A DNA stretch of 54,895 bases from an uncultured Akkermansia sp. Its GTDB lineage: Bacteria > Verrucomicrobiota > Kiritimatiellia > RFP12 > JAAYNR01. How positions within the stretch are numbered: the stretch's first letter is position 1; each line of letters opens with the position of its first letter. Location: assembly GCA_964580075.1 (NCBI GenBank), contig CAZOJL010000006.1, positions 1 to 54,895 on the forward strand. The letters are read 5' to 3'. The translations under genes were made by a program, and so were the position numbers. Positions 10,481 through 26,800 of this stretch are shown in pieces. The notes under the pieces are model-generated. The model was not told where the DNA came from. It did no database searches and was given only the letters and a program-made list of their open reading frames with translations.

Positions 10481-10592
10481 GAACCGCCATTAGCGCCATG
10501 CTCTCCAATCTTAAGTCGCTGGCCGTGGTGCGGGTGATCGAGGATGCGGACAACGTGGTGGAGAGAATGTCTGCGAAACAAGGAGTGCAACT

Positions 10593-12344
10593 ATGATCAC
10601 AAAACTGGTACTGAAGAATTTCAAGAGCATAGCCGGGCAAACGTATGATCTGACGAAGTTTGATCTGTTGGTGGGGCGAAACAACTGCGGCAAGAGCACC
10701 ATCCTGCAAGCCATGGCGATTTGGCAGTTCTGCGTGGATGAGTTTCACCGCGCACGCAGAAGCGGAAGCAACGGCATCCAAATCGTTCTGCCAAACTTCA
10801 CCGCTTTGCCGGTGCCGGAGTTCAACCTCTTGTGGCATGCAAAGGTTGACAGGAAATATGCTTTGGTTGATGGCAAACGATCCAAGAAGACCGACTTTGT
10901 CTTGATTGAAATCGAACTCACCTGGTTGGCCGCCAATCGGGAGCTTCGGTCTTTCGGTGTGCAGCTTCGATACACGGCGGCGCAATCCGTTTACGCGATT
11001 CCGATGCAAGGTTGGAAGATCTTTCGAGAGATGGAAAAGGATCTGAGTTTTCCGAAGATCGCGTATGTTCCCCCGTTTTCCGGCCTTGAGCCCAGCGAGG
11101 AGTGGAGAGATGAAGGTCCGCTCAGAAAACAGGTCGGCAAGGCTCAGCCGGGGAGCATTCTCCGTAATCTCTTGCTCAAAGTGTGTCCCGCGCCGCCGCG
11201 CGATCACACCGGGCGCATCGCCAAGACGTACGAACCGCCTGCGGAATGGAAGGAACTGAAGCAGGTTGTCAGTCGCTGGTTCTCTGTTGAGTTGACGGAA
11301 CCCCAGTACGAGCGCGGGGTGGACACGCAGATTCTCTGTGAATACAAGCAGGGCGGCAAGTCGTACGACATTATCTCCGGCGGAAGCGGCTTCCATCAGG
11401 CGTTGACGCTCTTGGGTTTTCTCTACGGCTACCGCCCGACCACGCTTCTTCTGGACGAACCCGACGCCCACATGCATGTGAATCTTCAACGTGAAATGCT
11501 CGACTACTTCAAGAAGAAAGCCAGCGAAACAGGCGTCCAATTCCTCCTGGCAACGCATGCCGAGGAGCTGATCAGAGGTGTTGACCCGAGTCAGGTGGTA
11601 TCCATTCTGCAGCATGAGCCGCGTCGGCTGACTTCTGCGACCGGTGTGCTGAGCGCGATGGCCGACGTGTCCAACGCGGAACTCAGCCAGCTCGCCGCTT
11701 CGCCATTTATCCTGTATGTCGAAGGCGAAACCGATGAACGCATTTTACGCGCCTGGGCTCCCACCTGCAAAGCCGATAATGCGCTTGCGAAGGTTTGTTT
11801 TCATACCATGGGCGGCGGCACCAAGAAGCTGATGAAAGATCATGCGGACCGGCACTACGAAGGTGTCCGGCAGGTGTTTCCAGAGGCGCGGCGTTTGATG
11901 CTGTTCGATTATGACAGCGACGAAAACGCTTTCCACCCTCCAGGAGAAAATTCCGCGCTGTTTGAGTGGGGGCGCAAGAACATTGAGAACTATCTTCTCG
12001 TACTTGATGCGTGGATGCGTACGGTGACCAAGGAATTAGGATTGCCGGACGATGATTTATTGGCGGAACCGGCTCGGCAGGTCATCAGGGACTTCTTTTC
12101 CAATGAAAATCTAACGCTACCCCGAGGGCAGACTTGGGAAAGCGTGTCGGCGAACGTCTTTAAAGTGGTGGACGGCAAGAAGCTGCTTTTTGACTCTAGC
12201 GAGGCGCTGTTCACGAAACTTGAGAGGATGGAGCCGCCCCTTAAGGCGATCCGCGAGAAGATCGCGGGCATGATGGGCGAGAACGAGATACATGATGACG
12301 TGAAACGGTTCTTCGCCAAGTTGCGCACCACGGTTGGTGACTGA
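10593..12344 (+). CDS. ABC-type ATPase fused to a DUF4435/TOPRIM-like nuclease domain (PARIS AriA-AriB-like fusion or OLD-like)
   Basis: Walker [10 protein letters not shown], Walker [13 protein letters not shown]-loop LLATHAEE. C-terminal [13 protein letters not shown] and FDYDSDE acidic TOPRIM-like motifs. Confidence 0.6.
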
Positions 12345-12355
12345 AGGAGCGAACA

Positions 12356-12841
12356 ATGGCAAGCGGATCTTCTATAGAATGGACCGAGTCGACATGGAAT
12401 CCGGTCACAGGCTGCACGAAAATCAGCGCGGGCTGTGCGCACTGCTACGCGGAGCGCATGGCCCGCCGGTTGCAGGCCATGGGTCAGCCGAATTACCGCA
12501 ACGGGTTCAAGGTCACATGCCATCACGATGTGCTGGGGCACCCGATGCGGTGGAAAAGGCCGCAGGTGATTTTCGTGTTTCTGTCGCTGGAACCTTTGCT
12601 AGGCCCATTGCCCAGGCTTGATCTCAATGGGATCGGCTGGGTGATCGTCGGCGGCGAATCCGGCCCGGGTGCGCGCCCGATGGACTCGGCCTGGGCGGCC
12701 GACATCCGCGACCCGTGTCTCGCCGCTAATGTGCCGTTCTTCTTCAAGCAATGGGGCGGCGTGCAGAAAAAGAAAGCTGGGCGTTTATTGGAGCACCGCA
12801 CGTGGGATCAAATGCCCCAGTTATCGGAGGTTGGCGCATGA
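12356..12841 (+). pseudogene. DUF5131 (phage Gp37/Gp68) family gene with an apparent in-frame internal deletion
   Basis: N-terminus [30 protein letters not shown] and C-terminus [33 protein letters not shown] are typical. The central segment expected after [10 protein letters not shown] (NSMSDLF...) is absent. 161 aa versus my recollection of about 250 aa for the family. Confidence 0.55.
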
Positions 12842-12899
12842 TCTCTGGACCATGCGTCGCGAGAAGATCGATCTGCGTTAAGTAACTAAGGAGACCATC

Positions 12900-14789
12900 A
12901 TGCCGAGAACCAACAAGACAGCCAACGAACAACGGCTCAGCGCCGAGCAAATCGCCTTCTTGAAGGAAAAGATGGGCCACTTCGCAGATCGGAACCCGTC
13001 CGCAGGGATCGCGCGCACCGACTGCAAACAGCTTTTCGAATATGTGGCGGTCCAGAAGATCACGTACCTCTATGACGATGAACTGCTCGAAGGCCTTCTG
13101 CACGTGGATCGTAAGCGAACCGGCAAGGCTGAAGAGTTGTTGGACGCCTACCTGATTCTGGATCAGGGCGATGAGGTCCAACTCAAACTCTTTCAGTTCA
13201 AGTGGAAGGAGGACTACAGCGGGGGGATTTCGACCAAGGAACTCCATCATTTTGTCACCCGCATGAATGCGGTCTTCCTGCACGGCGATCTTCAGGACGA
13301 CAAGACTCTGGAGGCCTTCAAGGAGGTTCGCGAGGCTTTCGACGCCGCCCTGTCCGCAAACAAGCGCGCCCGGCCGCGAATCCAGTGTTACTACGTCGTC
13401 AACGGGCAGAACGTTTCACCCACCGACGTCGCCAAGATTCAGGAAATCCGCGACATCTTCGCACACGACCGACAGGCCTATGGGTTTACGTTCGAGACCT
13501 ATGGCGGTACGGACATCTACAGCCTGTGCGCACTCGGCCGCGTCCCGATCCAAGAGGAGACGCTGGAGGTGAACCACGAATGGGGCAATGAGTCATTCCT
13601 GTTGCACAACATTGGCGCCAATCCCAACGGTATGCCGCTGAAAGTTATGGTGGGATTCGTCAACGTGAACCAGTTGATCCGACTGGTAGACCGTTACAGC
13701 AACAACGAATTGTTCGAGAAGAATGTCCGGCTCTTCCTCGGCACAGGCAAGGATGTGAACAAAGGGATCATCAAGACGGTCACCAGCAACGAGAGTGTCT
13801 GGTTCGGCTACATGAACAACGGTGTGAGCATGACCGCCGAGGATGTCCGCGTGGACCTTCCCGCTAGCAAGGGCAAGGTGCGCGTGCGGCTGACGGGGAT
13901 GCAGATCATCAACGGATGCCAGACGGTCAATGCGCTCTACCATGCCAAATATTCGCCCGACCTGAAGGATCGCTTCCAAGGCAATTCGAACGTCATGGTG
14001 CGCATTTACCAGATCGATCCCGCAAACAAGCCGTTTCACGATGCGCTGATCATTGCGACGAACTCGCAGAACGCGATCCGGCCGGAGGACTTGGTCTCGA
14101 ACGATGCGACGCAGTGCGCCATCCAGCGGGTCTATCAGGAGTACGGCATCGGCTATGAGCGAAAGGAGGGTGAAACACCTCCCGGCCATGGTTATCAAAT
14201 GACCTTCTCGAAGGAACAAGCCGCAATGGCTTACCTTGGTGTCATCGACGGAAAGTGCTCCAAGCTCCGAAACTCGCTCAGCCGTAGGGAGTTCTTCCGT
14301 CAAGGTGAAGATTATTATCGCGTTTTCAACCTCCGTGGATCCGAAGGAGAGTCGCCGTCCGGGTCGCTCCCCGAAGGGTTCGAGCCTGGCGCTGCCGCCA
14401 ATGCGCGCGCATTGGATATCTTGGCGGCGCGATGCATCGAGGAGGCGTGCCGCGTGAATATTGCTAAAGTGCCCAAGCAGGATCGTGGTCCGCTGAAAAA
14501 AGGCGCGTACTATTTGGCTCGCATCATTTTCCTGCAAAATGAGGCGCAGGTTCTGGATGTCGTGGCCAAATTGAAGGGCCAGGAGAGGAAGCCTTGCGTT
14601 TCCAAGGAGGTGATCGATCCCGTATCTATGATCGGAAACAATGGTTTTATCGCCGCACGAGGCGTGTTTGAAGCCGCGATCACGGAGTATCTGGCCAAAG
14701 AGGGCGGCAACGAGGACGCCGCACTAAAGAACACGGCTTTTGCATCGTTGGTCGATGAGCGGAGCGTACTGAAGATGGAGGGAATATGA
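12900..14789 (+). CDS. AIPR (abortive infection phage resistance) family protein
   Basis: 629-aa ORF with AAGGAG RBS. Central IINGCQTVNALY motif characteristic of AIPR proteins. Confidence 0.75.
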   Translation: MPRTNKTANEQRLSAEQIAFLKEKMGHFADRNPSAGIARTDCKQLFEYVAVQKITYLYDDELLEGLLHVDRKRTGKAEELLDAYLILDQGDEVQLKLFQFKWKEDYSGGISTKELHHFVTRMNAVFLHGDLQDDKTLEAFKEVREAFDAALSANKRARPRIQCYYVVNGQNVSPTDVAKIQEIRDIFAHDRQAYGFTFETYGGTDIYSLCALGRVPIQEETLEVNHEWGNESFLLHNIGANPNGMPLKVMVGFVNVNQLIRLVDRYSNNELFEKNVRLFLGTGKDVNKGIIKTVTSNESVWFGYMNNGVSMTAEDVRVDLPASKGKVRVRLTGMQIINGCQTVNALYHAKYSPDLKDRFQGNSNVMVRIYQIDPANKPFHDALIIATNSQNAIRPEDLVSNDATQCAIQRVYQEYGIGYERKEGETPPGHGYQMTFSKEQAAMAYLGVIDGKCSKLRNSLSRREFFRQGEDYYRVFNLRGSEGESPSGSLPEGFEPGAAANARALDILAARCIEEACRVNIAKVPKQDRGPLKKGAYYLARIIFLQNEAQVLDVVAKLKGQERKPCVSKEVIDPVSMIGNNGFIAARGVFEAAITEYLAKEGGNEDAALKNTAFASLVDERSVLKMEGI

Positions 14790-15607
14790 CCACGAAGAGC
14801 AAAAAACAGTCGCGTGAAGCCGAATCGCTCTCTCGGCGGATGGAACGTCTGGCGGGCGGGGCGGCGAAACGCGGGGTCCGCGACGCGCAAGATTTGGTCT
14901 ACGACGCCTGGGAGGCGGCGAACAGCGACGAGGCGTTCGATCTGCTGACCCAAGCCGTCGAACTCGACCCGACCAACGTGGACGCCTGGCTGGGGCTGAT
15001 GCGCTACGAGCCGCTTGACGGCAAGGAGGAGGTCGTGTTTCTCCGCCGTCTCGTGGCCTTGGGTGAGAAGAACCTCGGCAAGAAGGTGTTTCGTGAGGGC
15101 AAGGGCATCTTCTGGGGGCTTTTTGAGACGCGGCCCTACATGCGGGCGCGGGCTCGGCTGGCCTTTCGCCTGATGGAGGCCGGGCGGCTGGAGGAGTCCG
15201 TGGCCGAACACGAGGGCATGCTCGAACTCTGTTCGAACGACAATCTGGGCGTGCGCTACGGGCTCATGGCGCTCTATCTGGCACTGAACAACCTCGACGG
15301 CGCGAATCGCCTCTTCCGGGAATACGACGAGCGGGAGCACCGCGCGATGTTCGCCTGGGCCTACGTGCTCGAACGCTATCTGGCGGGCGATACGGGGGGC
15401 GCAACCCAAGCGCTCGCGGCGGCGCGGAAGCAGAACGAGCATGCCGAAGCCTATTTTGCCGCGCTCAGGAGGTTGCCGAAGAAGATGCCGGGATCGTACG
15501 CCATGGGGAGTCCAGAGGAGGCCGTGATCGCATGGGAGATCCTCAAGCCGGCATGGAAGAAGCATCCGGAGGCGCAAGCCTGGCTAATCGGCCAGTGCGC
15601 GAAGTGA
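14786..15607 (+). CDS. TPR-like all-helical protein, translationally coupled to the AIPR gene
   Basis: 273-aa ORF with ATGA overlap to the AIPR stop. Repeated helical A/L/E-rich TPR-like segments. No catalytic motif recognised. Confidence 0.45.
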   Translation: MTTKSKKQSREAESLSRRMERLAGGAAKRGVRDAQDLVYDAWEAANSDEAFDLLTQAVELDPTNVDAWLGLMRYEPLDGKEEVVFLRRLVALGEKNLGKKVFREGKGIFWGLFETRPYMRARARLAFRLMEAGRLEESVAEHEGMLELCSNDNLGVRYGLMALYLALNNLDGANRLFREYDEREHRAMFAWAYVLERYLAGDTGGATQALAAARKQNEHAEAYFAALRRLPKKMPGSYAMGSPEEAVIAWEILKPAWKKHPEAQAWLIGQCAK

Positions 15608-15644
15608 GTGAGCTTTGGGAAAAGAACGTGCTGGGAGGTCAGCC

Positions 15645-15815
15645 ATGATCCGACTGCACGTCACCGTGGAGGGGGCAACGAAACAGCGATTCCTGAAGGA
15701 TGTACTTTGTCCTCAAACTCGCTTGCGTTGCTCCGATAAAGGCGCTACAGTGAGTCGCAAATCGGGAATGCTCCCTGCGCATTATGGATGTGGTGCGTCC
15801 GATTCTACGGCATAA
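15645..15815 (+). pseudogene. Possible remnant of a DUF4276-family (TOPRIM-like) gene
   Basis: GGGAGG RBS followed by MIRLHVTVEGATKQRFLKDVL, which resembles DUF4276 N-termini. The ORF is only 56 aa and the remainder shows no resemblance. Confidence 0.3.
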
Positions 15816-15864
15816 TGATGCTTGGCTGCATTTTGGATTTATTGGATCAGTGAGCGAGGTGGAT

Positions 15865-18666
15865 ATGGATGCTGCTTGGAAATGGAATGGCGCTCGGTGG
15901 TGGAAGTTCGACTGCCACGCCCATACGCCACAGTCGGATTGTTATGGCGAAGGGGACGCCGCGCTCAAGGCGCGCACGCCCGAGGAGTGGCTGCTCGACC
16001 ACATGCGGGCCGGGTTCGATTGCGTCGCCGTTACCGACCACAATTCGGGCGAATGGATTGACCGGCTTCAGGAGGCGGCGGCGAATGAAACCTTGCGGAA
16101 ACATCCCGACTTTCGCGAGTTGGTTCTCTTTCCGGGAGTGGAACTGTTCGTCAACGGCGGGTTCCATGTATTGGCGATTCTGGGCGCGGATAAGACCGGG
16201 GCGGACGTGACGCGCTTGACTGGTGCTTGCGGATACGATTCGGCCAGTGGGGCCACAACCAAGTCTTTTTCCGAAGTTGCCGCCGCCATTGCCGCAACTG
16301 GCGGCGTGGTGTTGCCGGCGCACGTGGATGAACGAGACAAGAAGGGGCTTTGGGCGTTGTCTGACGAAAAAACGTGGCAGCAGGTGTTGGCTGTCAAGAC
16401 GTTGACAGCCTGGGAGGTTATGGATGCCTCCCAGCAACCACCGGACGTGGTTGTCCGATCCGGGCGGCAGTTTACGCGCATCCTTGGTTCGGATAGCCAT
16501 TGTCCCGAAAAAGTCGGCACGCGGTGGTCTTGGGTGAAGATGACCATGCCGAGCATTGGCGAACTGCGTTTGGCTCTGCAAGACGGCGAACTGGCGGTCC
16601 GCCCCTCGGACAAATACCCGGACGATCCGAACAATGTTCTGCCCGCTTTGGCGGTGGAATCCGTCACGGTCACGGATGCCAAGTATTTGGGTCGCACTTT
16701 CAGTGACGGAAGATTGAATACTTTTGCAGCCGCTTTTGGCCCTTGGCTGAATGCCATCATTGGCGGGCGCGGCACCGGGAAGTCGTCGCTGCTGGAATTT
16801 ATGCGCATCGCCTTGCGCCGGGAGGGCGAACTCGCAAAAGCCTTCGATAAGGAACAGATACGCGAAAATTTTGAGCGCTATCGGATAACCGGCGAGAAAG
16901 GTCTCTTGCTTCCGGGCGCCCTTATTCAGATCGTCTACCGGAAGGAAGGGCAGCGTTATCGCATCCAATGGAGCGTTAACGGGAACGCAACGGCCATCGA
17001 AGAGGAAACGCATGGCGGCTGGGTGCGCGCGGACGGCGACATAGCCGCTCGTTTTCCGGCGAGCATCTACAGCCAGAAGCAGTTGTTTGCCCTGGCGGGC
17101 AATCCAGCCGCTTTGTTAGACATCATTGACCAGACACCGGACATCAATCGCCAGGAATGGGATCAGAAGAGAAGCGAATTGGAAGGATCGTTTCTGTCTT
17201 TGCGCGCCAAGGAACGCGAGTTACAGGCACGCTTGACCGATGAAACACGACTGCGCGGAGAACTGGCCGACATCGAGCGACGATTGGCTGTCTGGGAAAA
17301 GAAGGCCACGCGCGACACCTTAAGAGCCTTCCAGCGACTGGCCCAACAGAGGGTTGGGCTGGAAAACTGGACAGCGGCTTTAGACGAAACGGTTGCGCGG
17401 CTCGCCGCTTATCCTGACGCCTTGACGCTGGAGACGCTGAACACCAGCATCTTCGACACCGGAACGCAGAATGAGAAAGCCGTTCTGGATCGGATACAAA
17501 CCACCACCGCCGCCTGGGCAGGCGTGATCAAGGCGGTCCAGACTGGGGCTGTTGATGCCGGGCGGGTGGCGCAGGAATGGAAAACATGGCTGGACCGTTC
17601 GGAATGGAAGAAACAGGCGCAGGAGATTGAGGCGGAATATGCGGGCTTGATTGAGCAATTGGCCGGGGAAGGCGTGGCGGATGCGGCCGACTATGGGAAT
17701 TGGTTGCAACAGAAACAAGCGCTGGAGGCCCGTCTCCGCGCGATTGCCGGTTATCGGACGGAAATTGCGCGATTGCAGGCACAGGCAACGGGCAAGTTGT
17801 CCGAAATTCGATCTCATCGTCGCGACCTGACGGAGAAGCGGCGGCAGTTTCTAAGCAACATACTGGCCACCAACAGTTTTGTGCGCATGGATGTGATACC
17901 TTATGGCGAATTGGATGATGCGCATGGTCAGTTGTCGGAATTGTTGCGCTGTGAAGACGCAAGGTATTCCACGGATGTTACCGGGTTACTGGACAGTGTG
18001 TATTTTCCTGACGGCAAGTCCTACATTTCGACATGGAAAGGCGTGGATGCGAGCCAGAGAATGCAGCTAGAGGAGGACATGGATAAGCGCTTGGTCGCTC
18101 TTAAGAAGCGTATCGGCGATTGCGCATTGGGAACAGTGCCGGAATCGCTTGGCCGTGGTTGGTTCCGGAATAAATTGAAGGATGCCGCGCAATCGCCGGA
18201 AACGCTCAATCATCTCGACCTTTCCTGGCCCGGGGACAGTGTGCATGTCTCCTATGCGAATCCGGCCACCGGCAAGTTCAGCGCGTTGGATCAGGCATCG
18301 CCCGGACAAAAAACGGCGGCTATTCTGGCCTTTGTGCTTTCCTATGGGCAAGACCCCATGATCCTGGACCAGCCGGAGGACGACCTGGACAATCACTGGA
18401 TCTACGAACTGGTGGTTCGCCAGATTCAGGAGAGCAAAAAGCGGCGGCAAATCATCGTCGTCACGCACAATGCCAATATCGCTGTGAACGGCGATGCGGA
18501 ACTGGTGCTCGCCCTGAAGTCGGATGGCGGTCGCACGGAGTACGAAGCGCAAGGCGGTTTGCAGGAAGCGGATGTTCGCGACACTGTCTGTCTGGTCATG
18601 GAAGGCGGCAGGGATGCCTTTGCGCGGCGATACGACCGGATTGTTGGAGGAACAGGACATGTATGA
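15865..18666 (+). CDS. PHP phosphoesterase domain fused to an SMC/Rad50-like coiled-coil ABC ATPase
   Basis: PHP metal ligand motifs FDCHAHTPQS, VTDHNS, FHVLAIL, LPAHVDE, GSDSHCP. Walker A GGRGTGKSS. Long Q/E/R/A-rich coiled coil. SPGQKTAA signature-like motif, Walker B ILDQPEDDLD, IIVVTHNANI. An alternative upstream ATG at 15784 is possible. Confidence 0.7.
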   Translation: MDAAWKWNGARWWKFDCHAHTPQSDCYGEGDAALKARTPEEWLLDHMRAGFDCVAVTDHNSGEWIDRLQEAAANETLRKHPDFRELVLFPGVELFVNGGFHVLAILGADKTGADVTRLTGACGYDSASGATTKSFSEVAAAIAATGGVVLPAHVDERDKKGLWALSDEKTWQQVLAVKTLTAWEVMDASQQPPDVVVRSGRQFTRILGSDSHCPEKVGTRWSWVKMTMPSIGELRLALQDGELAVRPSDKYPDDPNNVLPALAVESVTVTDAKYLGRTFSDGRLNTFAAAFGPWLNAIIGGRGTGKSSLLEFMRIALRREGELAKAFDKEQIRENFERYRITGEKGLLLPGALIQIVYRKEGQRYRIQWSVNGNATAIEEETHGGWVRADGDIAARFPASIYSQKQLFALAGNPAALLDIIDQTPDINRQEWDQKRSELEGSFLSLRAKERELQARLTDETRLRGELADIERRLAVWEKKATRDTLRAFQRLAQQRVGLENWTAALDETVARLAAYPDALTLETLNTSIFDTGTQNEKAVLDRIQTTTAAWAGVIKAVQTGAVDAGRVAQEWKTWLDRSEWKKQAQEIEAEYAGLIEQLAGEGVADAADYGNWLQQKQALEARLRAIAGYRTEIARLQAQATGKLSEIRSHRRDLTEKRRQFLSNILATNSFVRMDVIPYGELDDAHGQLSELLRCEDARYSTDVTGLLDSVYFPDGKSYISTWKGVDASQRMQLEEDMDKRLVALKKRIGDCALGTVPESLGRGWFRNKLKDAAQSPETLNHLDLSWPGDSVHVSYANPATGKFSALDQASPGQKTAAILAFVLSYGQDPMILDQPEDDLDNHWIYELVVRQIQESKKRRQIIVVTHNANIAVNGDAELVLALKSDGGRTEYEAQGGLQEADVRDTVCLVMEGGRDAFARRYDRIVGGTGHV

Positions 18667-19906
18667 CACACGCGAAGAACTGCTGGCAAAGATTCGCCTG
18701 GGAGAGGACACGACCTTTGAGATGAAGGCGGTTGTCTTCGCCGGTAATCAGGTTAGAGGACCGGGACGTGACGAACTGGCTGACGAACTGGCGGCGATCG
18801 CCAATACGTCCGAAGGGGTTTGTCTGTTGGGCATCGACGACAAGAGTCGGGAAGTCACGGGCATTCCCGTCAACCGCCTGGACGCCGTGGAAGCGTTGGT
18901 TCGAGAAGTGCTGAACGACAGTATCGTTCCGCCGCTGACAGCGCGGGTGTTGCGCATGGAGTTGCCCGATTCGCTGGGTGAACTCAAGCCGATCGTGCGG
19001 ATCGATGTTCCGCGCAGTCTTTTTGTGCACCGTAGCCCGCACGGATATTTTCACCGCGTTGGGAGTTCAAAACGCGAACTTTCGCCGGAAATCCTTGCCC
19101 GGTTGTTTCAGCAACGCAGTCAATCCCGGATCATTCGGTTCGACGAGCAGGCGGTGCCCGAGACTTCAATTGCGGACTTGGACACCGCTTTATGGAGCCG
19201 GTTTGTCCGCGATGCGTCCGGCAATGCGGAGGAAATCCTTCGAAAACTGCGGATTGTGACAAATGACGATACCGGGGCAGAGCGACTTTCAGTTGGCGGC
19301 GTGCTGATGTGCACGCGTAACCCGGAACGGTGGCTCAGTGGCGCCCAGATTGAGGCTGTTTGTTACCGAGGGCTCACGCGCGATGCAAACTACCAACTCG
19401 ATGCCAGAACCATCACTGGCCCGCTCGACCGGCAGGTGTTCGATACATTGTCCTTTGTCGCGAAAAACATGCGGCGACCGGCCGTCAAAGACCCGGCGCG
19501 GAACGAGGTTCCGGAATACAGCGAACGCGCGTTATTCGAGGCCATCGTCAATGCGGTGGCGCATCGCGACTATTCGATTCACGCTTCACGAATACGCTGC
19601 TTTATGTTCGAGGATCGTGTCGAAATCTATTCGCCGGGGCCGCCGCCCAATAGCGTGACCGTGGAAAGCATGCCATTGCGACAGGCTACACGAAACGAAA
19701 TGGTTGCGTCACTGCTGTCCAATTGCCGTGCCGCCGGCGTTGCAGGCGGACTCGGCAGGACTTTCCTGATGGAGAAGCGTGGGGAAGGCGTGCCGATCAT
19801 CATGAACGAGAGCCTTCGATTGTCAAATCGGAAGCCGGAATATCAACTTATAGATAACACGGAAATCATGCTTTCCATCTGGGCCGGCAAGAGCGCCGTC
19901 GCGTAA
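18659..19906 (+). CDS. AlbA_2 (Schlafen-like) domain plus HATPase_c_4 (GHKL-like) protein
   Basis: Start overlaps the upstream stop (ATGTATGA). N-terminal TFEMKAV..LAAIANTSEGVCLLGIDD (AlbA_2-like). C-terminal EAIVNAVAHRDYS..DRVEIYSPGPPP (HATPase_c_4-like). Confidence 0.7.
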   Translation: MYDTREELLAKIRLGEDTTFEMKAVVFAGNQVRGPGRDELADELAAIANTSEGVCLLGIDDKSREVTGIPVNRLDAVEALVREVLNDSIVPPLTARVLRMELPDSLGELKPIVRIDVPRSLFVHRSPHGYFHRVGSSKRELSPEILARLFQQRSQSRIIRFDEQAVPETSIADLDTALWSRFVRDASGNAEEILRKLRIVTNDDTGAERLSVGGVLMCTRNPERWLSGAQIEAVCYRGLTRDANYQLDARTITGPLDRQVFDTLSFVAKNMRRPAVKDPARNEVPEYSERALFEAIVNAVAHRDYSIHASRIRCFMFEDRVEIYSPGPPPNSVTVESMPLRQATRNEMVASLLSNCRAAGVAGGLGRTFLMEKRGEGVPIIMNESLRLSNRKPEYQLIDNTEIMLSIWAGKSAVA

Positions 19907-19910
19907 CCGC

Positions 19911-20027
19911 GTTGATCCCGCAGCGGATACGTCGGCGTGGGAGCGGGAGATCGACCAACAGGTTTACGCCCTTTACGGCCTGACGGAGGAGGAGATCAAA
20001 ATCGTGGAGGGGAGCACGCAACGATGA
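19911..20027 (+). pseudogene. Orphan 3' end of a second PglX/type IIG-like methyltransferase gene (tail copy B)
   Basis: Translates VDPAADTSAWEREIDQQVYALYGLTEEEIKIVEGSTQR-stop. Homologous to 10370-10480. Its TGA overlaps the ATG of the PIN gene. Confidence 0.75.
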
Positions 20028-20521
20028 ACAAGGATAGAAAAATGAGACCGAAAGTCTATTTGGAAACGAGCGTGGTGAGTTACCTGGCGGCACGACCGAG
20101 TCGCGACCTGGTGGTCGCGGCGAATCAGGAAGTGACGCGGGAATGGTGGGCAAATGCACAAGAACGTTTGGATTTGTTTCTGTCTGAAATTGTTTTGAAG
20201 GAAATCGCGGCGGGCGATCGTGTTGCGGCGGCTGAACGTAAACGCTATCTTGTGAAAGTGCCGCTCTTGCCGTTGAACCTCGATGCGCGAGCTTTGGCGG
20301 ATCGCTATCTTGCGGCAAGGATTATGCCGGCAAAGGCGGCGACCGATGCCCTGCATATTGCCTTGGCGACGGTGCACGGCATGGATTACGTGGTCACATG
20401 GAACTGTGCGCATATCGCCAATGCCCTTACGCAAAAGGCCATTGCCCGGATCAGCAGCGAAGGCGGGTATGAACCGCCCGTGATCTGTACGCCTTTGGAG
20501 TTAATGGAGGACGAAGCATGA
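20024..20521 (+). CDS. PIN-like (VapC-family) toxin
   Basis: MNKDRKMRPKVYLETSVVSYLAARPSRDL..ATDALHIALA..VVTWNCAHI. Matches a widespread PIN-like family that has Glu in the first acidic position. Confidence 0.55.
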   Translation: MNKDRKMRPKVYLETSVVSYLAARPSRDLVVAANQEVTREWWANAQERLDLFLSEIVLKEIAAGDRVAAAERKRYLVKVPLLPLNLDARALADRYLAARIMPAKAATDALHIALATVHGMDYVVTWNCAHIANALTQKAIARISSEGGYEPPVICTPLELMEDEA

Positions 20522-20766
20522 AACCAGACCCGATTGTGGCGGAAGTCCGTAAAGTGCGGGAAGCGCATGCCCTGCGGCATGGAAACGATCTTCGAAGAAT
20601 CTATGCGGATATGAAGAAAGCCGAGGCTCGGGATCATTGGCCACAGGCGCAAGTTCGCGTGCAATCGCCCGTTCGCGCTTGCGTGGCGGAGGATTCCGCC
20701 CAGTATGTTGCGAAGAAGGGGCGTAGTGCCACCAGGCACGCGCCAAGCGATACTGGCGGAGCTTAA
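20518..20766 (+). CDS. Small partner protein of the PIN-like toxin (putative antitoxin)
   Basis: 82-aa ORF with ATGA overlap to the toxin. The N-terminus DPIVAEVRKVREAHALRHGNDLRRIYADMKKAE resembles partners found downstream of this PIN family. Confidence 0.4.
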   Translation: MKPDPIVAEVRKVREAHALRHGNDLRRIYADMKKAEARDHWPQAQVRVQSPVRACVAEDSAQYVAKKGRSATRHAPSDTGGA

Positions 20767-20861
20767 CGAACGCATTGGAGCGCGAGATCGACCAGCAGGT
20801 TTACGCCCTCTACGGCCTGACGCCGGAGGAGATTAAGATTGTGGAGGGGACGGTAAAATGA
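20767..20861 (+). pseudogene. Orphan 3' end of a third PglX/type IIG-like methyltransferase gene (tail copy C)
   Basis: Translates LEREIDQQVYALYGLTPEEIKIVEGTVK-stop. Differs from the intact gene's tail at five synonymous third positions only. Confidence 0.75.
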
Positions 20862-20898
20862 GAAACATACTTTTGCCCGGCAATACAGGAGGTTCCAT

Positions 20899-22107
20899 AT
20901 GACAACGCCCGTTTTTATTAAGCGCGTGGTGCTGAATAATTATAAAAGCATCAAAGAGTGTTCCGTCGCCCTGGGGCCGCTCACGTTTTTGGTAGGCCAG
21001 AACGGCGCGGGGAAGAGTAATTTTCTCGATGCGTTGCGACTGGTGACAGACGGACTGAACACCTCCCTTGAGCATGCCTTGCGGGAGCGCGGCGGCATTA
21101 ACGAAGTCCGGCGCCGTTCTTCGGGGCATCCCACGCATTTTGGCATCCGGCTTGAGTGGGTTCTTCCCAACGGAAGCGAAGGCGTTTATGCGTTTCGGAT
21201 TGGTTCTCAGAAGAAGGGCGGCTTTGAAGTTCAGCGCGAAGAGTGCCGCGTTTTCGAGCCGGATCGGGTGCAGGTGAGTTTCTACAAGGTGGAATGCGGG
21301 GTTCTGAAGAGTTCGAATTTCGAGGTCGCGCCGCCGACTTCGAGCGACCGGCTCTATCTGGTTTCCGCCGCCGGACTTCCGCCGTTCCGTCCGCTTTACG
21401 ATGCGTTGTCGCACATGGGGTTCTACAATCTGAATCCTGACGAGATCCGCGAACCCCAGCCGCCGGATCCGGGCGAGGTGCTTAAGCGGGACGGCAGTAA
21501 TCTGGCCAGCGTACTGGGACTGCTTGAAAAGGGCGGGGTTGAGCGGATTGTCGAGTTGCTGTCGAAGGTTGTCCCGGGGATACAGAATATTGAGGTCAGG
21601 CATGTCGGCAAAAAGGAAACACTGGAGTTCCGGCAACAGGTGGGTAAGAATAAAGACCCGTGGCGGTTTATGGCGGAGAATATGTCGGACGGTACATTGA
21701 GGGCGCTGGGAGTACTTACTGCGCTGTTCCAGTCCTCTAAGGCGGACGGCAAGCGGGTTCCTTTGGTTGGAATTGAGGAGCCCGAAACCGCTGTTCATCC
21801 CGGCGCTGCCGGTGTGCTGCGGGACGGGTTGCGGGCGGCTGCCGAGCTTACTCAAACCATTGTAACCAGTCACAGCCCGGATCTTCTGGATGACAAGGAA
21901 ATTGCCGATGAACACATTTTGGCAGTTATGAACCGGAATGGTGAAACCCTGATCGGCCCGCTGGACGACGCGGGCAGAACGGCAATTCGCCAACGTCTCT
22001 ACACGGCAGGGGAACTGCTTCGCTTGAATCAGATGGAGCCGGATCAGGATGTAATAAGCAAGGTTTCTTCGAATCAACTGGAGCTGTTTTCAGAGTACAA
22101 GCCATGA
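20899..22107 (+). CDS. AAA_15/AAA_21-type (RecF/SMC-like ABC) ATPase
   Basis: Walker A GQNGAGKSNFLDAL, Walker B-like LVGIEEPETAVHP, H-loop IVTSHSPDLLD. No nuclease domain recognised. Confidence 0.7.
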   Translation: MTTPVFIKRVVLNNYKSIKECSVALGPLTFLVGQNGAGKSNFLDALRLVTDGLNTSLEHALRERGGINEVRRRSSGHPTHFGIRLEWVLPNGSEGVYAFRIGSQKKGGFEVQREECRVFEPDRVQVSFYKVECGVLKSSNFEVAPPTSSDRLYLVSAAGLPPFRPLYDALSHMGFYNLNPDEIREPQPPDPGEVLKRDGSNLASVLGLLEKGGVERIVELLSKVVPGIQNIEVRHVGKKETLEFRQQVGKNKDPWRFMAENMSDGTLRALGVLTALFQSSKADGKRVPLVGIEEPETAVHPGAAGVLRDGLRAAAELTQTIVTSHSPDLLDDKEIADEHILAVMNRNGETLIGPLDDAGRTAIRQRLYTAGELLRLNQMEPDQDVISKVSSNQLELFSEYKP

Positions 22108-22234
22108 CCGAGATCTGCATACAAGCAATTTGATATGGTTGCCGCTCGGCGGGCCGATTCCTTTGACAAGTGTTACAGGGAAATCCACAAAATGCTTTCG
22201 GCCTTGCGACAGACCGTAATGGATTGAGAAATCA

Positions 22235-23989
22235 ATGAGCGACACAATCCGACAGCCTATCGCCCGCTGGACCGCCGCCGAAGAAGGTCAATTCTTCGAA
22301 CGGAAGTCGGCGTTGGATCGTTCATCCGGGCGCGTGAAACCGCGCAAGGCGGCGGAAATCGCGCATGACATTGCTGAAACGGTTTGCGCCATGGCCAATG
22401 CCGATGGTGGGGAACTCGTGGTCGGCATGGAGGATGATGGGGCGATTTCGGGAGTTCCGCACGCCGAGGACAAACTGCAATTGTTGTTGGGTGTGCCGAA
22501 GGACCGGAACTACGTGAACCCGCCGCTGCCTTGCCGATCCCGCAAGGTGGTCTCCTCGGACGGATTGGTTCTCCTGCATTTCGAGGCGGATTGGAGTCCA
22601 GCCGTTCACCTCCTGGCCGACAGCCGGTGCCTATTGCGCGTGGACGACACCAATTCGCCATTCGCGCCCGACAAGGTGGGCGCATTGAAGGCGGCCAAGG
22701 CTCAGGGCCTTCTTGAACGCTCCTTTCCTCCCGGCGCACAAATGGAAGACCTCGATCTGGACTTGGTATCCACCGAATTGGGCAAGGTCTGGCCGGGTTT
22801 GTCGCCGGAGGCTGTTTTGCGACGGTACGGACTCATCGCGGGCCGCAACGGGCATTCCGTGCCAACGCTGGCGGCGCTGCTGTTGTTTGGCCGAGAACCG
22901 ACTCGCTGGCATCCCCGATGTGGTCTCGATTTCATTCGTTGGGAAGGCACGCAGGGCAAGACCGGTTCGGAGTTGAACATCGCCAAGCGGATTCGTATAG
23001 AAGAACCGCTGGCGGTGCTGATCCGCAAGGCGCGCGAAGCGATTCATCCCTTCATCCGGGAACGTCAACATCTGCACGACCTGTTCTTTGTCGAAAAACT
23101 CGAATACCCGACGTTTGCCTGGCAGGAGGCCATCGTCAACGCGGTGGCGCACCGGGATTACAGCCTGCAAGGCGCGCCGATCGAGGTCTGGATGTACGAC
23201 GACCGTATGGAGATTCGCAGCCCTGGCATGCCTCCCGCGCCGGTTACGGTCGATGCGCTGAACCATCGCAAGCGCGTCCATCTCTCCAGGAATCCCATAC
23301 TGGTTCGGGCGCTGGCAGACCTGCAGTATATGCGGGACGTCGGTGAAGGAGTTCCACGTATCTTCGACGAAATGGACCGCGCCGGTTGCTATCCGCCAAG
23401 GTTCGAGATCATCGGCGGATTTGTGTTTCAGTTGACGTTGCGCAACGAACCGGTCTACGACCGCAAGACCCTGGATTGGCTCAAGCAGTTCACCGATGTC
23501 GATCTGTCAGGTGACCAGAAGCGTATGCTTGCCTACGCCCATGCTCATGGGGAACGGTTCACCAGCCGGGAATTCCAGAAGGTCATCGGCACGGACATCT
23601 ACGGCGCCTCGAACGCGATCAAGGACATGATCCGCAAGGGGGTGGCTAAATCCACCGAGAAGGGCAGTCGGGTCTATGGGATTCACAAGCCATTACGAGA
23701 GCAGCCCGGCATGCCGACGGAACTCCGACAACTTCTTCCATTGCTTAGGAAGAAGGGACGCCTGGCCAATCAGGATGTACGGAAGATCTGTGGGCTGACG
23801 AAGATCACGGCCGCGCGTCTCCTGCGCGAACTCACGTCAGGGCAATGGCTTGCGGGAACGGGGAAGCGGGGTGCAGGTGCGTGGTACTCCGCTGGTCCTC
23901 GTCTATTGTCTCAGTCTCAAACTAGTTCGGAAAGCCGTGAGACTGATACAATGAGCCATGAGGCTGATACAATGAAAAAGCGAAAGTAG
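22235..23989 (+). CDS. AlbA_2 (Schlafen-like) plus HATPase_c_4 (GHKL-like) plus C-terminal wHTH-like protein; paralog of 18659-19906
   Basis: FFERKSAL..VCAMANADGGELVVGMEDDG (AlbA_2). EAIVNAVAHRDYS..DRMEIRSPGMPP (HATPase_c_4). C-terminal basic helical region. Confidence 0.7.
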   Translation: MSDTIRQPIARWTAAEEGQFFERKSALDRSSGRVKPRKAAEIAHDIAETVCAMANADGGELVVGMEDDGAISGVPHAEDKLQLLLGVPKDRNYVNPPLPCRSRKVVSSDGLVLLHFEADWSPAVHLLADSRCLLRVDDTNSPFAPDKVGALKAAKAQGLLERSFPPGAQMEDLDLDLVSTELGKVWPGLSPEAVLRRYGLIAGRNGHSVPTLAALLLFGREPTRWHPRCGLDFIRWEGTQGKTGSELNIAKRIRIEEPLAVLIRKAREAIHPFIRERQHLHDLFFVEKLEYPTFAWQEAIVNAVAHRDYSLQGAPIEVWMYDDRMEIRSPGMPPAPVTVDALNHRKRVHLSRNPILVRALADLQYMRDVGEGVPRIFDEMDRAGCYPPRFEIIGGFVFQLTLRNEPVYDRKTLDWLKQFTDVDLSGDQKRMLAYAHAHGERFTSREFQKVIGTDIYGASNAIKDMIRKGVAKSTEKGSRVYGIHKPLREQPGMPTELRQLLPLLRKKGRLANQDVRKICGLTKITAARLLRELTSGQWLAGTGKRGAGAWYSAGPRLLSQSQTSSESRETDTMSHEADTMKKRK

Positions 23990-23992
23990 GCC

Positions 23993-26800
23993 ATGCCCAC
24001 CCACGACATCATAGACAACCGGACCGAGAAACTGGTTGACCACCTGTCCCAGATGCTCGGATCGACCGAACGCGCCCGGTTCGCGGTGGGCTACTTGTTC
24101 CTGTCCGGCCTGACGAGCGTTGCGAAACGGCTCCTGAACTTGAAGGATTTGCGCCTGCTCATCGGCAACACGACGAACCGCGAGACGGTCGAAATGCTGG
24201 CCGAAGGCTACCGCCGGATTGATCTGGCTGCAGAGGAAGTCGAGAAGCAGGTTTATCCGAAGCGCACTGAGGCCGGCAAAATGGCGCAGGAGACCGCCGG
24301 GAATCTCCGGAACACCGTCGAGTTGATGGACCAAACAGACGAGGCGCAGGATCTGATTGCCGGGCTGATTCGGATGATCGAGGAGAAGCGACTCAAGGTC
24401 CGCGTCTTCACGAAGGGCCGCCTTCACGCCAAGGCGTACATCTGCGACTACGGGAAGGTGTTCGACTTGCTGGGCAAGGAGATTGACCGGCATGAAAGAG
24501 GGATCGCCGTAGTGGGGTCTTCCAACTTGACATTGGCCGGGCTTACCCACAACACCGAGTTGAATGTTGTCGTTCAGGGTAACCAGAATCACGGCGAACT
24601 GGTCCGCTGGTTCGATGACCTCTGGAAAGAGGCGCAAGAGTTCGACGACACGCTGATGGCCGAGCTCAAGGAGTCCTGGGCGGCGGCGCAGGTCCGGCCT
24701 TACGACATCTACATGAAGACCCTCTACGCCCTCGTGCGCGACCGGTTGGAGAGCGAGGACGAAGCGGAATTGCTTTGGGATGATGACATCTTCCGCAAAC
24801 TGGCGAGTTTTCAGAAGGTGGCCGTGCGGCAGGCGGTGCAAATGACCCGTGACTTCGGCGGGGCGTTTGTGTCCGACGTGGTAGGTCTGGGCAAGAGTTA
24901 CATCGGCGCGGCGATCGTGAAGCACTTCGAGCGCACCGACCACGCGCGCCCGCTGATCATCTGCCCCGCCCCGTTGGTGGAGATGTGGGAGCGGTATAAC
25001 GAGGTTTATCAACTCAACGCCCGCGTCCTTTCAATGGGGTTCTTGCGCGAGGACGAACAGGATGGCGTCACCCGGATGCTGAACGACATCAAGTTCAAAG
25101 ACCGGGACTTCGTCCTTGTGGATGAGAGCCATAATCTCCGACACCCGGACACGCAGCGTTACAAGATCGTGCAAACCTTCCTTTCGACGGGGCGGCGGTG
25201 CTGTTTCCTGACCGCAACACCCCGGAACAAGAGCGCCTGGGACGTTTACCACCAGATCAAACTGTTTCATCAGGACGACCGCACCGACTTGCCGGTGGAC
25301 CCGCCGAACTTGAAGGAATACTTCAAACTGATCGACAAGGCCGAACGGAAACTCCCGGACTTGCTGGCGCATATCCTCGTTCGCCGGACCCGGCAACACA
25401 TCCTACGCTGGTATGGTTTCGACGCCGAGACCCACGAACCGGTTGACCCGAACCGCTTTCAGGAATACCTCCAGGGCACGCGGAAGGCTTACGTGTTGGT
25501 GGGCGGCAAACACCAGTTCTTCCCAAAACGCGAACTGGAAACCATCGAGTACAGCATCGAAGACACCTATCAGGGACTTTATCAGGAGTTGCGCGGCTAT
25601 CTGGGCAGGGGTGGCACAGGCATTCCTGCCTGTGTACCACAGACAAGAATGTCTGTGCCACCCTCCTCAACCATCGAAGTCATCTTCAGCGGCGACAAGA
25701 GCAAGGAGAAGGTTGTCGGCCGCTTCGCGCCCAAGGCGAACCCGGAGTATCGCTTCGCCAAGGACGAGGCAGAACTGATGATGGTGATTGCCACCGACGT
25801 TCTTGCCGAAGGCTTGAACCTTCAGGACTGCGACAACATCATCAACTACGACCTGCACTGGAACCCCGTCCGGCTGATTCAACGTTTTGGGCGCATTGAC
25901 CGTATCGGCTCGGAACACGAACGCATTTTCGGCTTCAACTTCCTGCCTGAAACCAAGCTCGACAAGAATCTCGGCCTCAAAGACAAATTGCACAACCGCA
26001 TTCAGGAAATACACGACACCATCGGGGAAGATTCGGAGATTCTTGACCTGACTGAGAAGCTCAACTCGGAAGCCATGTATGCGATCTATGAGACTCGTGG
26101 AGGCGCTCCAGTCCAACTGGACCTGTGGGGCGGCGCTGACGACGAGTTCCTTGACCTGAACGAGGCCGAGGAAATCCTGCGACAGTTGCGGAAGGACAAT
26201 CCCGACGAGTACGAGCGCATCGCCAGTCTGCGCGACGGCATCCGTACCGCCCGGCCGTCGTTGCAACGCGGCATGTACGTCTTCTGCCAAGCCGGGCGGT
26301 TTCAGCAGTTGTTCCTGCTCGACGACAAGGGCGCTGTGATCTCCCGGGACGTGCCCAAGGTGGTCGGCGCGATCAAGTGCGCCCCCGACGCTAAAGCCGC
26401 ACCATTACCAGAGGGCTACAACAAGGCGGTCATGGCGATTCAACGCAAGTTCGCGGAGGATGTCCGGCGCCGCGAGGCCGAGCGGACCTACACGGCGAAC
26501 CTGACTCACGGCCAACTCTACGTTTTGCGGGAACTGCGAATCCTGTTTGAAGCCACGGAAGACGAAGATATCAAACAGAACGTCAACGTCTTAGAGAAGG
26601 CCTTCCGGGGGCCGCTCACCGGCACGGTGAAGCGTGAACTCAACCAGTTGCGACGGAACTCGGTGACAGGTGAAGGGCTGCTCAAGAACCTGGCTCGAAT
26701 GTATGATCGGCACAATCTGAAGGACGCCGCCGCCCAACGGAGCCTCGGCATGGCGGACAGGGCCATTCCTCGGATTGTCTGCAGCGAGGCTTTTGTCTGA
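23993..26800 (+). CDS. PLD-family (HKD) nuclease domain fused to an SNF2-family helicase, helicase C-lobe probably damaged
   Basis: HKD motif GRLHAKAYI..VGSSNLT. SNF2 motifs VVGLGKSY (I), LVDESHNLR (II), LTATPRNKS (III), ATDVLAEGLNLQ, QRFGRIDRIG (VI). A palindromic repeat is embedded between YQELRGYL and IEVIFSG, where the first strands of the RecA2 lobe are expected. Confidence 0.8.
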   Translation: MPTHDIIDNRTEKLVDHLSQMLGSTERARFAVGYLFLSGLTSVAKRLLNLKDLRLLIGNTTNRETVEMLAEGYRRIDLAAEEVEKQVYPKRTEAGKMAQETAGNLRNTVELMDQTDEAQDLIAGLIRMIEEKRLKVRVFTKGRLHAKAYICDYGKVFDLLGKEIDRHERGIAVVGSSNLTLAGLTHNTELNVVVQGNQNHGELVRWFDDLWKEAQEFDDTLMAELKESWAAAQVRPYDIYMKTLYALVRDRLESEDEAELLWDDDIFRKLASFQKVAVRQAVQMTRDFGGAFVSDVVGLGKSYIGAAIVKHFERTDHARPLIICPAPLVEMWERYNEVYQLNARVLSMGFLREDEQDGVTRMLNDIKFKDRDFVLVDESHNLRHPDTQRYKIVQTFLSTGRRCCFLTATPRNKSAWDVYHQIKLFHQDDRTDLPVDPPNLKEYFKLIDKAERKLPDLLAHILVRRTRQHILRWYGFDAETHEPVDPNRFQEYLQGTRKAYVLVGGKHQFFPKRELETIEYSIEDTYQGLYQELRGYLGRGGTGIPACVPQTRMSVPPSSTIEVIFSGDKSKEKVVGRFAPKANPEYRFAKDEAELMMVIATDVLAEGLNLQDCDNIINYDLHWNPVRLIQRFGRIDRIGSEHERIFGFNFLPETKLDKNLGLKDKLHNRIQEIHDTIGEDSEILDLTEKLNSEAMYAIYETRGGAPVQLDLWGGADDEFLDLNEAEEILRQLRKDNPDEYERIASLRDGIRTARPSLQRGMYVFCQAGRFQQLFLLDDKGAVISRDVPKVVGAIKCAPDAKAAPLPEGYNKAVMAIQRKFAEDVRRREAERTYTANLTHGQLYVLRELRILFEATEDEDIKQNVNVLEKAFRGPLTGTVKRELNQLRRNSVTGEGLLKNLARMYDRHNLKDAAAQRSLGMADRAIPRIVCSEAFV
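25610..25662. repeat. REP-like palindrome, in frame inside the PLD-SNF2 ORF
   Basis: GGTGGCACAGGCATTCCTGCCTGTG..CACAGACAAGAATGTCTGTGCCACC. Same family as 8867-8925. Translates GGTGIPACVPQTRMSVPP. Confidence 0.8.

Follow-up and report, generated by a model that had tools for sequence, protein, structure and literature searches.

A trlF-trlG-type gene pair in a bacterial defence island joins a Ppl-like PHP-ATPase to a Schlafen-HisKinase protein

We analysed a 54,895-nt stretch of DNA (hereafter the window; contig CAZOJL010000006.1 of the uncultured Akkermansia sp. assembly GCA_964580075.1) in which two overlapping genes at 15865-19906 had been singled out as a candidate defence module in a sequence-only reading. 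The first (gene 1) resembles trlF and ppl and the second (gene 2) resembles trlG. The features of the pair are as follows.

15865..18666, + strand: gene 1 (trlF/ppl-like), 933 aa, PHP phosphoesterase fused to an SMC/Rad50-like coiled-coil ABC ATPase
15889..16614, + strand: PHP domain (about residues 9-250), with ligand motifs D16/H18/H20, D58-H59, E93, H101, H153 and D210/H212
15940..15942, + strand: codon 26, TGT (Cys), at the near-invariant Asp of PHP motif I, from the alignment
16762..16788, + strand: Walker A GGRGTGKSS, residues 300-308; G303, K306 and S307 invariant in 76/76 homologues
17149..18222, + strand: long helical (coiled-coil) insert between the halves of the ATPase head (about residues 429-786), from the secondary structure of the model and matches to SMC, JetC and Rad50 heads
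18232..18645, + strand: C-terminal half of the ATPase head, with SPGQKT (812-817), LDQPEDD (834-840), THN (867-869) and the AAA_21 match
18646..18651, + strand: GGAGGA, ribosome-binding site for gene 2 within the 3' end of gene 1, read from the sequence
18659..18666, + strand: stop/start overlap ATGTATGA, 8 nt, read from the sequence
18659..19906, + strand: gene 2 (trlG-like), 415 aa, prokaryotic Schlafen nuclease domain plus HisKinase-like HATPase_c_4 domain, without a C-terminal helix-turn-helix (HTH)
18704..18727, + strand: Schlafen catalytic motif E16-x4-E21-x-K23, from a profile alignment to human SLFN14 and the orthologue alignment
18836-18841, + strand: D60/D61 of gene 2, aligned with SLFN14 D248-249
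19526..19855, + strand: HisKinase/GHKL-like domain (about residues 290-399), with E294, N298, HRDY (302-305), SPG (325-327) and G375/G377

The start of gene 1 was placed at the ATG at 15865, which is consistent with the family and gives an N-terminus, MDAAWKWNGARWW, fitting the family consensus MxxWxWNGARWWKFD. The same two products, with gene 1 at 933 aa, were picked by independent gene callers on other metagenomic copies of the island. The TGA of gene 1 (18664-18666) and the ATG of gene 2 (18659-18661) share the 8-nt overlap, as had been read from the letters alone, and the GGAGGA lies 7 nt 5' of the gene 2 start; GGAG-like sites stand at the equivalent position in orthologous loci. A promoter and terminator scan of 15300-20300 returned counts no better than chance.

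Gene 1 passed the cut-off of the NCBIfam model TrlF_fam_ATP (NF045780; 544 bits, cut-off 350), with residues 8-925 covering profile positions 1-942, and matched the PADLOC Ppl profile PDLC02208 over its full length (residues 9-927, 2e-140). With the NCBIfam model Ppl_antiphage (NF042955) it reached 525 bits over profile positions 1-882, the cut-off being 1000. Pfam matches were to AAA_21 (residues 799-872), SMC_N and AAA_23, and the Pfam PHP model had no match in gene 1. We nevertheless assign a PHP domain because the NCBIfam CehA/McbA metallohydrolase model matches residues 11-245, the ligand positions are invariant or nearly so in alignments of 24 and about 78 homologues, and the N-terminal domain of the AlphaFold model (m35abbe3f21a7, pLDDT 84) matches the PHP domain of RNase AM in Foldseek. 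The same model exhibits an ABC head whose two halves are separated by about 350 residues of helical insert, with fold matches to the heads of JetC, SMC, Rad50/SbcC, RecN and RecF. Walker A, Q-loop, signature (SPGQKT), Walker B (LDQPEDD) and H-loop (THN) are all present and invariant across about 76 homologues. The description of gene 1 as a PHP domain fused to a Rad50/SMC-like coiled-coil ATPase therefore holds on family models, motifs and structure prediction alike. In the Protein Data Bank (PDB), a sequence search with gene 1 returned nothing at E <= 0.001, and no Ppl structure was among the matches of a fold search with the model. The same chemistry as in Ppl is expected of gene 1 by homology, because the ATPase motifs and PHP residues are invariant across paired and solo relatives.

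Gene 2 matched the Pfam families SLFN_AlbA_2 (residues 16-141, 7.9e-12) and HATPase_c_4 (residues 311-399, 3.9e-16), in line with its initial description as an AlbA_2 plus HATPase_c_4 protein, and the folds agree. Foldseek matches of its model (pLDDT 79) were to 3lmm (the uncharacterised DIP2311), to the nuclease domains of SLFN13/11/14/5 and to the tRNase domain of SAMD9, while the HATPase region matched GHKL kinases, namely PDK and histidine-kinase ATP-binding domains. In the profile alignment E16, E21 and D60-61 correspond to human SLFN14 E206, E211 and D248-249, E211 being the residue changed in the E211A entries 9jr9/9uie. E16, E21 and K23 are kept in 56/56 orthologues and D61 in 55/56; the HisKinase-like motifs E294, N298, HRDY, SPG and G375/G377 are invariant in the 56. 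Prokaryotic Schlafens are defined by the motif E-x4-(E/D)-x-K, and Schlafen-HisKinase is their largest architecture class (34%); two prokaryotic Schlafens were shown to defend, one of which proved to be a tRNase activated by phage (Taboada et al., 2025, bioRxiv 10.1101/2025.07.24.666596). Sharing with this class the Schlafen domain, the E-x4-E-x-K motif and the fused HisKinase-like domain, gene 2 is by sequence a prokaryotic Schlafen-HisKinase protein with a predicted Schlafen-type nuclease domain, although the prokaryotic Schlafens shown to defend carry other fusions, DUF262 or Ig-like, and act as single genes. That study mentions neither PHP nor Ppl and draws no link to a PHP-ATPase (bioRxiv 10.1101/2025.07.24.666596). 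Viral contigs searched for gene 2 gave 15 pattern matches and no relatives, a result neutral for the interpretation given below.

When one genome per species was scanned, gene 1 had at least 558 relatives, and the best 80 were retained. A gene 2 orthologue (phmmer 206-560 bits, in every case well above chance) lay directly 3' in 59 of these 80 nearest relatives, or in 59 of 75 when only loci with room downstream are counted, 5 of the other 21 ending too early. With the gene 2 starts located by alignment, the same 8-nt overlap (ATGTTTGA, ATGTATGA or ATGTTTAA) was found in 43 of the 59 orthologous loci, and the spacing between the genes ranged from -17 to +3 nt in all 59. The hosts include Acidobacteriota, Latescibacterota, Desulfobacterota, Rhodothermales, Spirochaetota, Verrucomicrobiota, Chlorobi and others. 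The two proteins diverge in step, their pairwise identities being correlated (Mantel r = 0.81, with 0/2000 permutations as high), with gene 2 better conserved (mean pairwise identity 56% vs 47% for gene 1). Because the adjacency and the same 8-nt overlap recur across many phyla and the proteins co-diverge, we conclude from these comparisons that trlF-trlG is a real, widely conserved operon and, by prediction, a functional two-gene unit.

Solo forms were also recovered. In the neighbour-joining tree, 12 of 16 solo gene 1 relatives fell in one nested clade that includes Hafnia and Pectobacterium, whose gene has 91-96% DNA identity to a gene in 17 E. coli genomes. Solo TrlF/Ppl-like genes about 40% identical to gene 1 were present on 477 plasmids, mostly enterobacterial and conjugative; these plasmid relatives, which PGAP labels 'TrlF family AAA-like ATPase', mostly have no gene 2 relative in the same record. 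In the plasmid collection trlG stood beside trlF only on plasmids of Burkholderia thailandensis and Yersinia ruckeri. The B. thailandensis copy lies beside a MobF relaxase gene and a PLD restriction endonuclease, and its gene 2 orthologue is 54% identical to that of the window. A site next to queG (L171 and L179 vs L173 and L177) carries trlF-trlG in some genomes and trlG alone in others; in the latter, trlG is about 20-50 bp away from queG and nothing is left of trlF.

Two described systems resemble the pair. E. coli Ppl is an anti-phage 3'-5' single-stranded DNA exonuclease, inhibited by nucleoside triphosphates (NTPs) bound to its PHP and NTPase domains and switched on when NTPs are depleted and phage homing endonucleases have produced 3'-OH ends (review PMC12904381); the primary paper on its mechanism is Xu et al., Mol Cell 2026, as cited in PMC13434339. 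Gene 1 has the same PHP plus ABC ATPase architecture, with full-length profile matches and about 40% identity to enterobacterial solo relatives, although it falls below the NCBIfam equivalog cut-off (525 vs 1000). Ppl is described as acting alone, whereas gene 1 has a translationally coupled second gene, kept in 59/80 relatives, and the solo forms make up one nested clade of the tree.

The second system is the TRL operon of Photorhabdus laumondii, which consists of trlR (79 aa), trlF ('histidinol phosphatase') and trlG (bioRxiv 10.1101/2020.06.02.129163; PMC7554251), the last coding for an AlbA_2 plus HATPase_c_4 protein mis-annotated as recG (Hapeshi et al., 2020, PMC7554251). It was presented as a temperature-restriction locus, and the paper makes no mention of phage (bioRxiv 10.1101/2020.06.02.129163). 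More than 30 independent mutants growing at 36 C had changes in trlG and none in the larger trlF; these were loss-of-function mutations, deletion of the operon had the same effect, and transcription of the operon is induced by a temperature up-shift (PMC7554251). The copy on Y. ruckeri pYR3, named in the same study (PMC7554251), was in our plasmid collection, where its trlR has an HTH_73 domain and its trlF and trlG overlap by 22 nt. The window pair has the same order, a PHP-ATPase followed by an AlbA_2 plus HATPase_c_4 protein, likewise with overlapping genes. pYR3 TrlF has K at the position of PHP H212 and pYR3 TrlG has Q at that of Schlafen E21, whereas the window clade keeps H and E. No HTH_73-like open reading frame (ORF) was found upstream of gene 1 in the window, the 257-bp spacer there holding only a 66-codon TTG ORF (15615-15815) with no family match, and clustering yielded no conserved upstream small ORF in the clade, mostly giving out-of-frame artefacts. 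Small ribbon-helix-helix (RHH) genes do occur sporadically just 5' of trlF (L012 6749-6925, L174 487-669, L081 3851-4054 and the B. thailandensis plasmid), in the place that trlR takes in Photorhabdus and Yersinia; the window has none.

By sequence, the pair thus belongs to known families, namely Ppl/TrlF, the prokaryotic Schlafens and the TRL operon. It had been proposed as an undescribed module, and this we do not retain: gene 1 passes the TrlF cut-off and matches Ppl, the pair is of the trlF-trlG type, and gene 2 is of the prokaryotic Schlafen-HisKinase class, so that a match to already named systems exists at least in part. The new part is only the link between the separate descriptions of Ppl/TrlF, the bacterial Schlafens and the Photorhabdus trlF-trlG genes. 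The proposal that the pair is none of Lamassu, Gabija, Septu, Wadjet or PARIS was upheld by the PADLOC profiles and by the lack of partner genes. Matches of gene 1 to LmuB (1.7e-4), GajA (1.1e-4) and PtuA (1.5e-4) were marginal, and that to AriA (2e-10) was confined to the 70 C-terminal residues; we rejected these identities because the matches were marginal or limited to 70 residues of the ATPase and the partner genes were absent.

BREX genes on the same strand were found within 7 kb in 24 of 79 loci. In at least 12 of these, confirmed with PADLOC models, trlF(-trlG) lies between pglX/pglXI and brxHI/pglZ, and this slot is occupied by both paired and solo trlF forms. The loci with trlF(-trlG) inside BREX operons were L004, L016, L019, L027, L032, L034, L048, L055, L056, L060, L073, L077 and L080. 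Time and again, genes lodged like this inside BREX and Hma operons have turned out to function in defence (bioRxiv 10.1101/2024.01.29.577857), and the BREX-linked backup effectors of a recent survey include Schlafen-'minimal histidine kinase'-wHTH proteins (PMC12839542). A defence role of the pair is plausible because of its full-length homology to Ppl, an island rich in defence genes, and the BREX embedding elsewhere.

The island that holds the pair spans about 19 kb (7400-26800), with a G+C content of 52-59% vs 63-69% in the flanks. Its order is a Type IIG-like methyltransferase, an AAA_15/21 ATPase with a short DUF5131 gene, an AbiU/AIPR gene with a TPR gene, trlF-trlG, a PIN gene with an 82-aa ORF, HEC-01A, a second Schlafen and an HKD-SNF2 helicase. 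It splits a tetrapyrrole/alternative haem cluster (flanks about 2862-7368 and 26852-31338), with hemA and two radical-SAM/SPASM genes on the left and an NirD/L-like siroheme decarboxylase, cbiK/X and a hemC-cobA-hemD fusion on the right. A tRNA scan of the whole window found none, so there is no tRNA-type integration site. Upstream of the pair, the 583-aa AAA_15/AAA_21 ABC ATPase (10593-12344) is followed by the 161-aa DUF5131 protein (12356-12841), with matches to the PADLOC candidates PDC-M41B and PDC-M30B, and the DUF5131 profile (243 positions) matches in two stretches, its middle seeming to be missing. The AIPR/AbiU-like gene (12900-14789) and the TPR gene (14786-15607) overlap by 4 nt. 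Among the other trlF-trlG loci, only L051 and L047 have the TPR gene close by, and in L051 a 36%-identical TPR gene (693-1463) lies directly 5' of trlF with no AIPR gene there. Downstream of the pair, a PIN-domain gene (19937 or 20024 to 20521) overlaps the 82-codon ORF (20518-20766), which has no family match. Elsewhere, nothing corresponding to the PIN gene, the 82-aa ORF or the AIPR gene is found close to trlF-trlG; in L170 and L172, solo trlG has PIN toxin-antitoxin-like pairs for neighbours. The other features used below, all outside the module, are as follows.

7400-10480: Eco57I/TaqI_C-type (Type IIG-like) methyltransferase
20899..22107, + strand: HEC-01A ABC ATPase (PADLOC HEC-01A PDLC04178, 3e-162)
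22104..22234, + strand: deletion remnant of HEC-01B (TOPRIM); tblastn of intact HEC-01B, 71-76% identity, E 1e-8 to 1e-12
22235..23989, + strand: second Schlafen-HisKinase protein, 584 aa, with C-terminal wHTH, 26% identical to gene 2
23993-26800: HKD-SNF2 helicase (PADLOC C3a139 'HKD+Snf2'), starting 3 nt after the second Schlafen gene

The sequence-only reading had seen in 20899-23989 a recurrence of the ATPase-AlbA_2 pairing. An ATPase gene and an AlbA_2 gene do lie there, at 20899-22107 and 22235-23989, although the 127-bp gap between them is not empty: it holds a remnant of HEC-01B, of which the initial 9 codons (MTEICIQAI*) are left and, in a different frame, the final 34 or so (22129-22230). 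The DNA ceases to align with L084 and L085 at about 22122-22127, implying a deletion of about 490 bp, and HEC-01A upstream of the remnant is intact. Of 80 metagenomic relatives of HEC-01A (68-87% identical), 63 have room downstream, and in about 60 of these the ATPase is overlapped by 4 nt by a gene of about 205 aa, which is HEC-01B (PADLOC 1e-66); an AlbA_2 protein was the next gene in none. HEC-01 consists of an ABC ATPase and a TOPRIM protein, and no defence was detected when it was tested (bioRxiv 10.1101/2024.01.29.577857); the window has HEC-01A and only a remnant of HEC-01B, so that it lacks a complete HEC-01. We thus rejected a conserved HEC-01A plus AlbA_2 pairing.

The second Schlafen gene, as judged from its orthologues, belongs with the HKD-SNF2 helicase downstream of it. 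Its orthologue in L180 (80%) is followed, as in the window, by that of the helicase (85-87%). The Eco57I-type methyltransferase (39-58%) is close by in L180, only two small uncharacterised genes separating it from the Schlafen gene, with none of the other defence cassettes of the window in between; around two further orthologues of this Schlafen the neighbouring genes are unrelated. In the window the methyltransferase is parted from the second Schlafen and helicase by about 11.7 kb of other defence cassettes, trlF-trlG included, an arrangement that resembles the insertion of defence genes into a BREX-related system. The two ATPase-Schlafen adjacencies of the island are therefore not one design, since the partner of HEC-01A is HEC-01B and the second Schlafen goes with the helicase.

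The reading that we favour, with moderate confidence, is that the pair, a trlF-trlG-type operon in a defence island, represents the Ppl/TrlF family in two-gene form and that its products act as one anti-phage or abortive-infection unit. Several observations weigh against it. The adjacency count of 59/80 describes the relatives closest to this protein, the best 80 of at least 558, and is not a family-wide rate. Likeness to the TRL operon is distant: gene 1 is 24% identical to pYR3 TrlF (E 7e-28) and gene 2 28% identical to pYR3 TrlG over 84% of its length (E 6e-35), and the window pair has no trlR (HTH_73) upstream. From the gene 2 side, eight orthologues on long contigs (59-61% identical) were sampled: four follow trlF with the 8-nt overlap and the other four have neither trlF nor a remnant of it, two of these solo trlG genes standing at the queG site, where relatives have both genes. 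TrlG therefore does not need TrlF; nor need TrlF depend on TrlG, judging from the solo TrlF/Ppl clade and from Ppl working alone in E. coli. The functional partnership first claimed for the pair is hence upheld from the side of gene 1, by the adjacency and the co-divergence, and not from that of gene 2. The same solo forms, on 477 plasmids and in E. coli chromosomes on the TrlF side and in 4/8 samples on the TrlG side, could instead mean that a Ppl-type nuclease-ATPase and a Schlafen-HisKinase effector are two independent single-gene systems, inherited as neighbours and each working alone, as Ppl is described in E. coli and as single-gene prokaryotic Schlafens defend unaided (bioRxiv 10.1101/2025.07.24.666596). 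We consider this rather unlikely, since chance neighbours would not be expected to keep an identical 8-nt start/stop overlap in 43/59 loci over many phyla, to co-diverge (r = 0.81) and to be inserted jointly within BREX operons. A growth brake in the response to stress or temperature, a toxin-antitoxin-like housekeeping module of the TRL kind with no role against phage, would fit the sole genetics on such a pair, in which Photorhabdus temperature restriction and up-shift-induced transcription are described and phage is unmentioned (PMC7554251), and some loci do lie between housekeeping genes (queG, methyltransferase, AhpC). The full-length homology to a validated anti-phage protein, the defence-island location, the BREX embedding and the patchy, plasmid-borne distribution make it improbable. 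Finally, gene 1 had been likened to an SbcCD-type machine with PHP in place of Mre11, and the fused PHP domain and the fold matches of the ATPase to Rad50/SbcC, RecN and RecF agree with that picture as far as architecture goes. The ABC head with a coiled-coil insert is shared with SbcCD/Mre11-Rad50, Wadjet JetC and Lamassu LmuB, the best fold matches being JetC, SMC and Rad50, but the window pair is without Mre11, kleisin or KITE partners, its nuclease being the fused PHP domain, and its scores with the family models of Rad50 and RecN fall well short of the cut-offs. With its sporadic distribution on mobile elements, its embedding in BREX operons and defence islands, and an anti-phage protein as its closest characterised relative, a DNA repair machine of the SbcCD kind is very hard to credit.

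A further possibility is that the module is a decaying relic here, with TrlF losing function and only TrlG under selection; we regard this as unlikely, though it is the rival that we take most seriously. All PHP ligand motifs had been reported as visible in gene 1, and H18/H20, D58-H59, E93, H101, H153 and D210/H212 are indeed present, in motifs that are invariant or nearly so in about 78 homologues, but the window copy has Cys at the near-invariant Asp26. That column is D in 74/77 homologues, including the closest relatives P0001 and P0002, and E in 2/77, Cys being found only in this copy and in the five other island copies examined (L164-L168). Counting columns conserved in at least 93% of relatives (about 146), TrlF of the window deviates at 12-13, against a family median of 1, and ranks 77th of 79; the deviations include D26C, G233, R247, R691, W787 and L845, and eight of them, these six included, are unique with respect to the nearest relatives. 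This too weighs against the favoured reading, as it could mean decay. TrlG is unremarkable, with 3 deviations vs a median of 2. That HEC-01B of the same island is already deleted, that its DUF5131 gene looks shortened and that TrlG persists without TrlF elsewhere all point in the same direction. On the other side, the 933-codon frame is intact, every ATPase motif and 10/11 PHP positions are retained, the deviations are identical in L164-L168, Cys is capable of binding metal, and Asp25 adjoins Cys26. From the alignment, the substitutions may reflect adaptation or early decay, and the PHP activity of this copy may be weakened by D26C and the other unusual residues.

If the pair is a two-gene Ppl/TrlF-family defence unit, the most economical model by analogy would have TrlF as a DNA-end and NTP sensor and exonuclease, and TrlG as a growth-arresting nuclease. 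As in the published accounts of E. coli Ppl, TrlF would form an SMC-like dimer, be held off by cellular NTPs, bind DNA ends or 3'-OH overhangs and degrade DNA 3'-5' through its PHP domain. TrlG, made in a fixed ratio with TrlF, would be the effector that arrests growth, probably by cleaving tRNA or other RNA like the Schlafens that have been tested. Its activity could be gated by binding of TrlF or by the NTP level, sensed through putative ATP binding of the HisKinase-like domain. Because the mutations permitting growth at 36 C hit trlG and none trlF, TrlG would be the toxic component and temperature restriction a form of autoimmunity.

A broader proposal, which we put forward tentatively and think doubtful as a whole, is that the form with two effectors, TrlF and TrlG, is ancestral and the commonest in the Ppl family. 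TrlF would license the Schlafen RNase TrlG, wiring the detection of foreign DNA to the shutdown of translation; the single-gene Ppl of E. coli would be derived, its partner having been lost; the temperature restriction of Photorhabdus would be autoimmunity; and the module would be a standard pglX-pglZ insert of BREX. In the literature searched, no paper joins Ppl, the bacterial Schlafens and the Photorhabdus locus, and none has PHP, Schlafen and an ABC ATPase together; Krishnan et al. 2020 and Xu et al. 2026 lay outside the search and may already mention the association.

For the window itself the result is an ordinary one, namely one more cassette in a crowded, partly decayed defence island, and the interest of the pair stems from the unifying link rather than from this locus. 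Three lines of work, on the Ppl nuclease, the tRNA-cleaving Schlafens and the Photorhabdus locus, appear to concern parts of one thing. If this is true, tools that call Ppl a one-gene system would miss half of the common form, and the temperature limit of an insect pathogen would be self-damage by its immune system. The Schlafen-HisKinase proteins, the largest class of bacterial Schlafens, would then gain a natural partner and a testable trigger.

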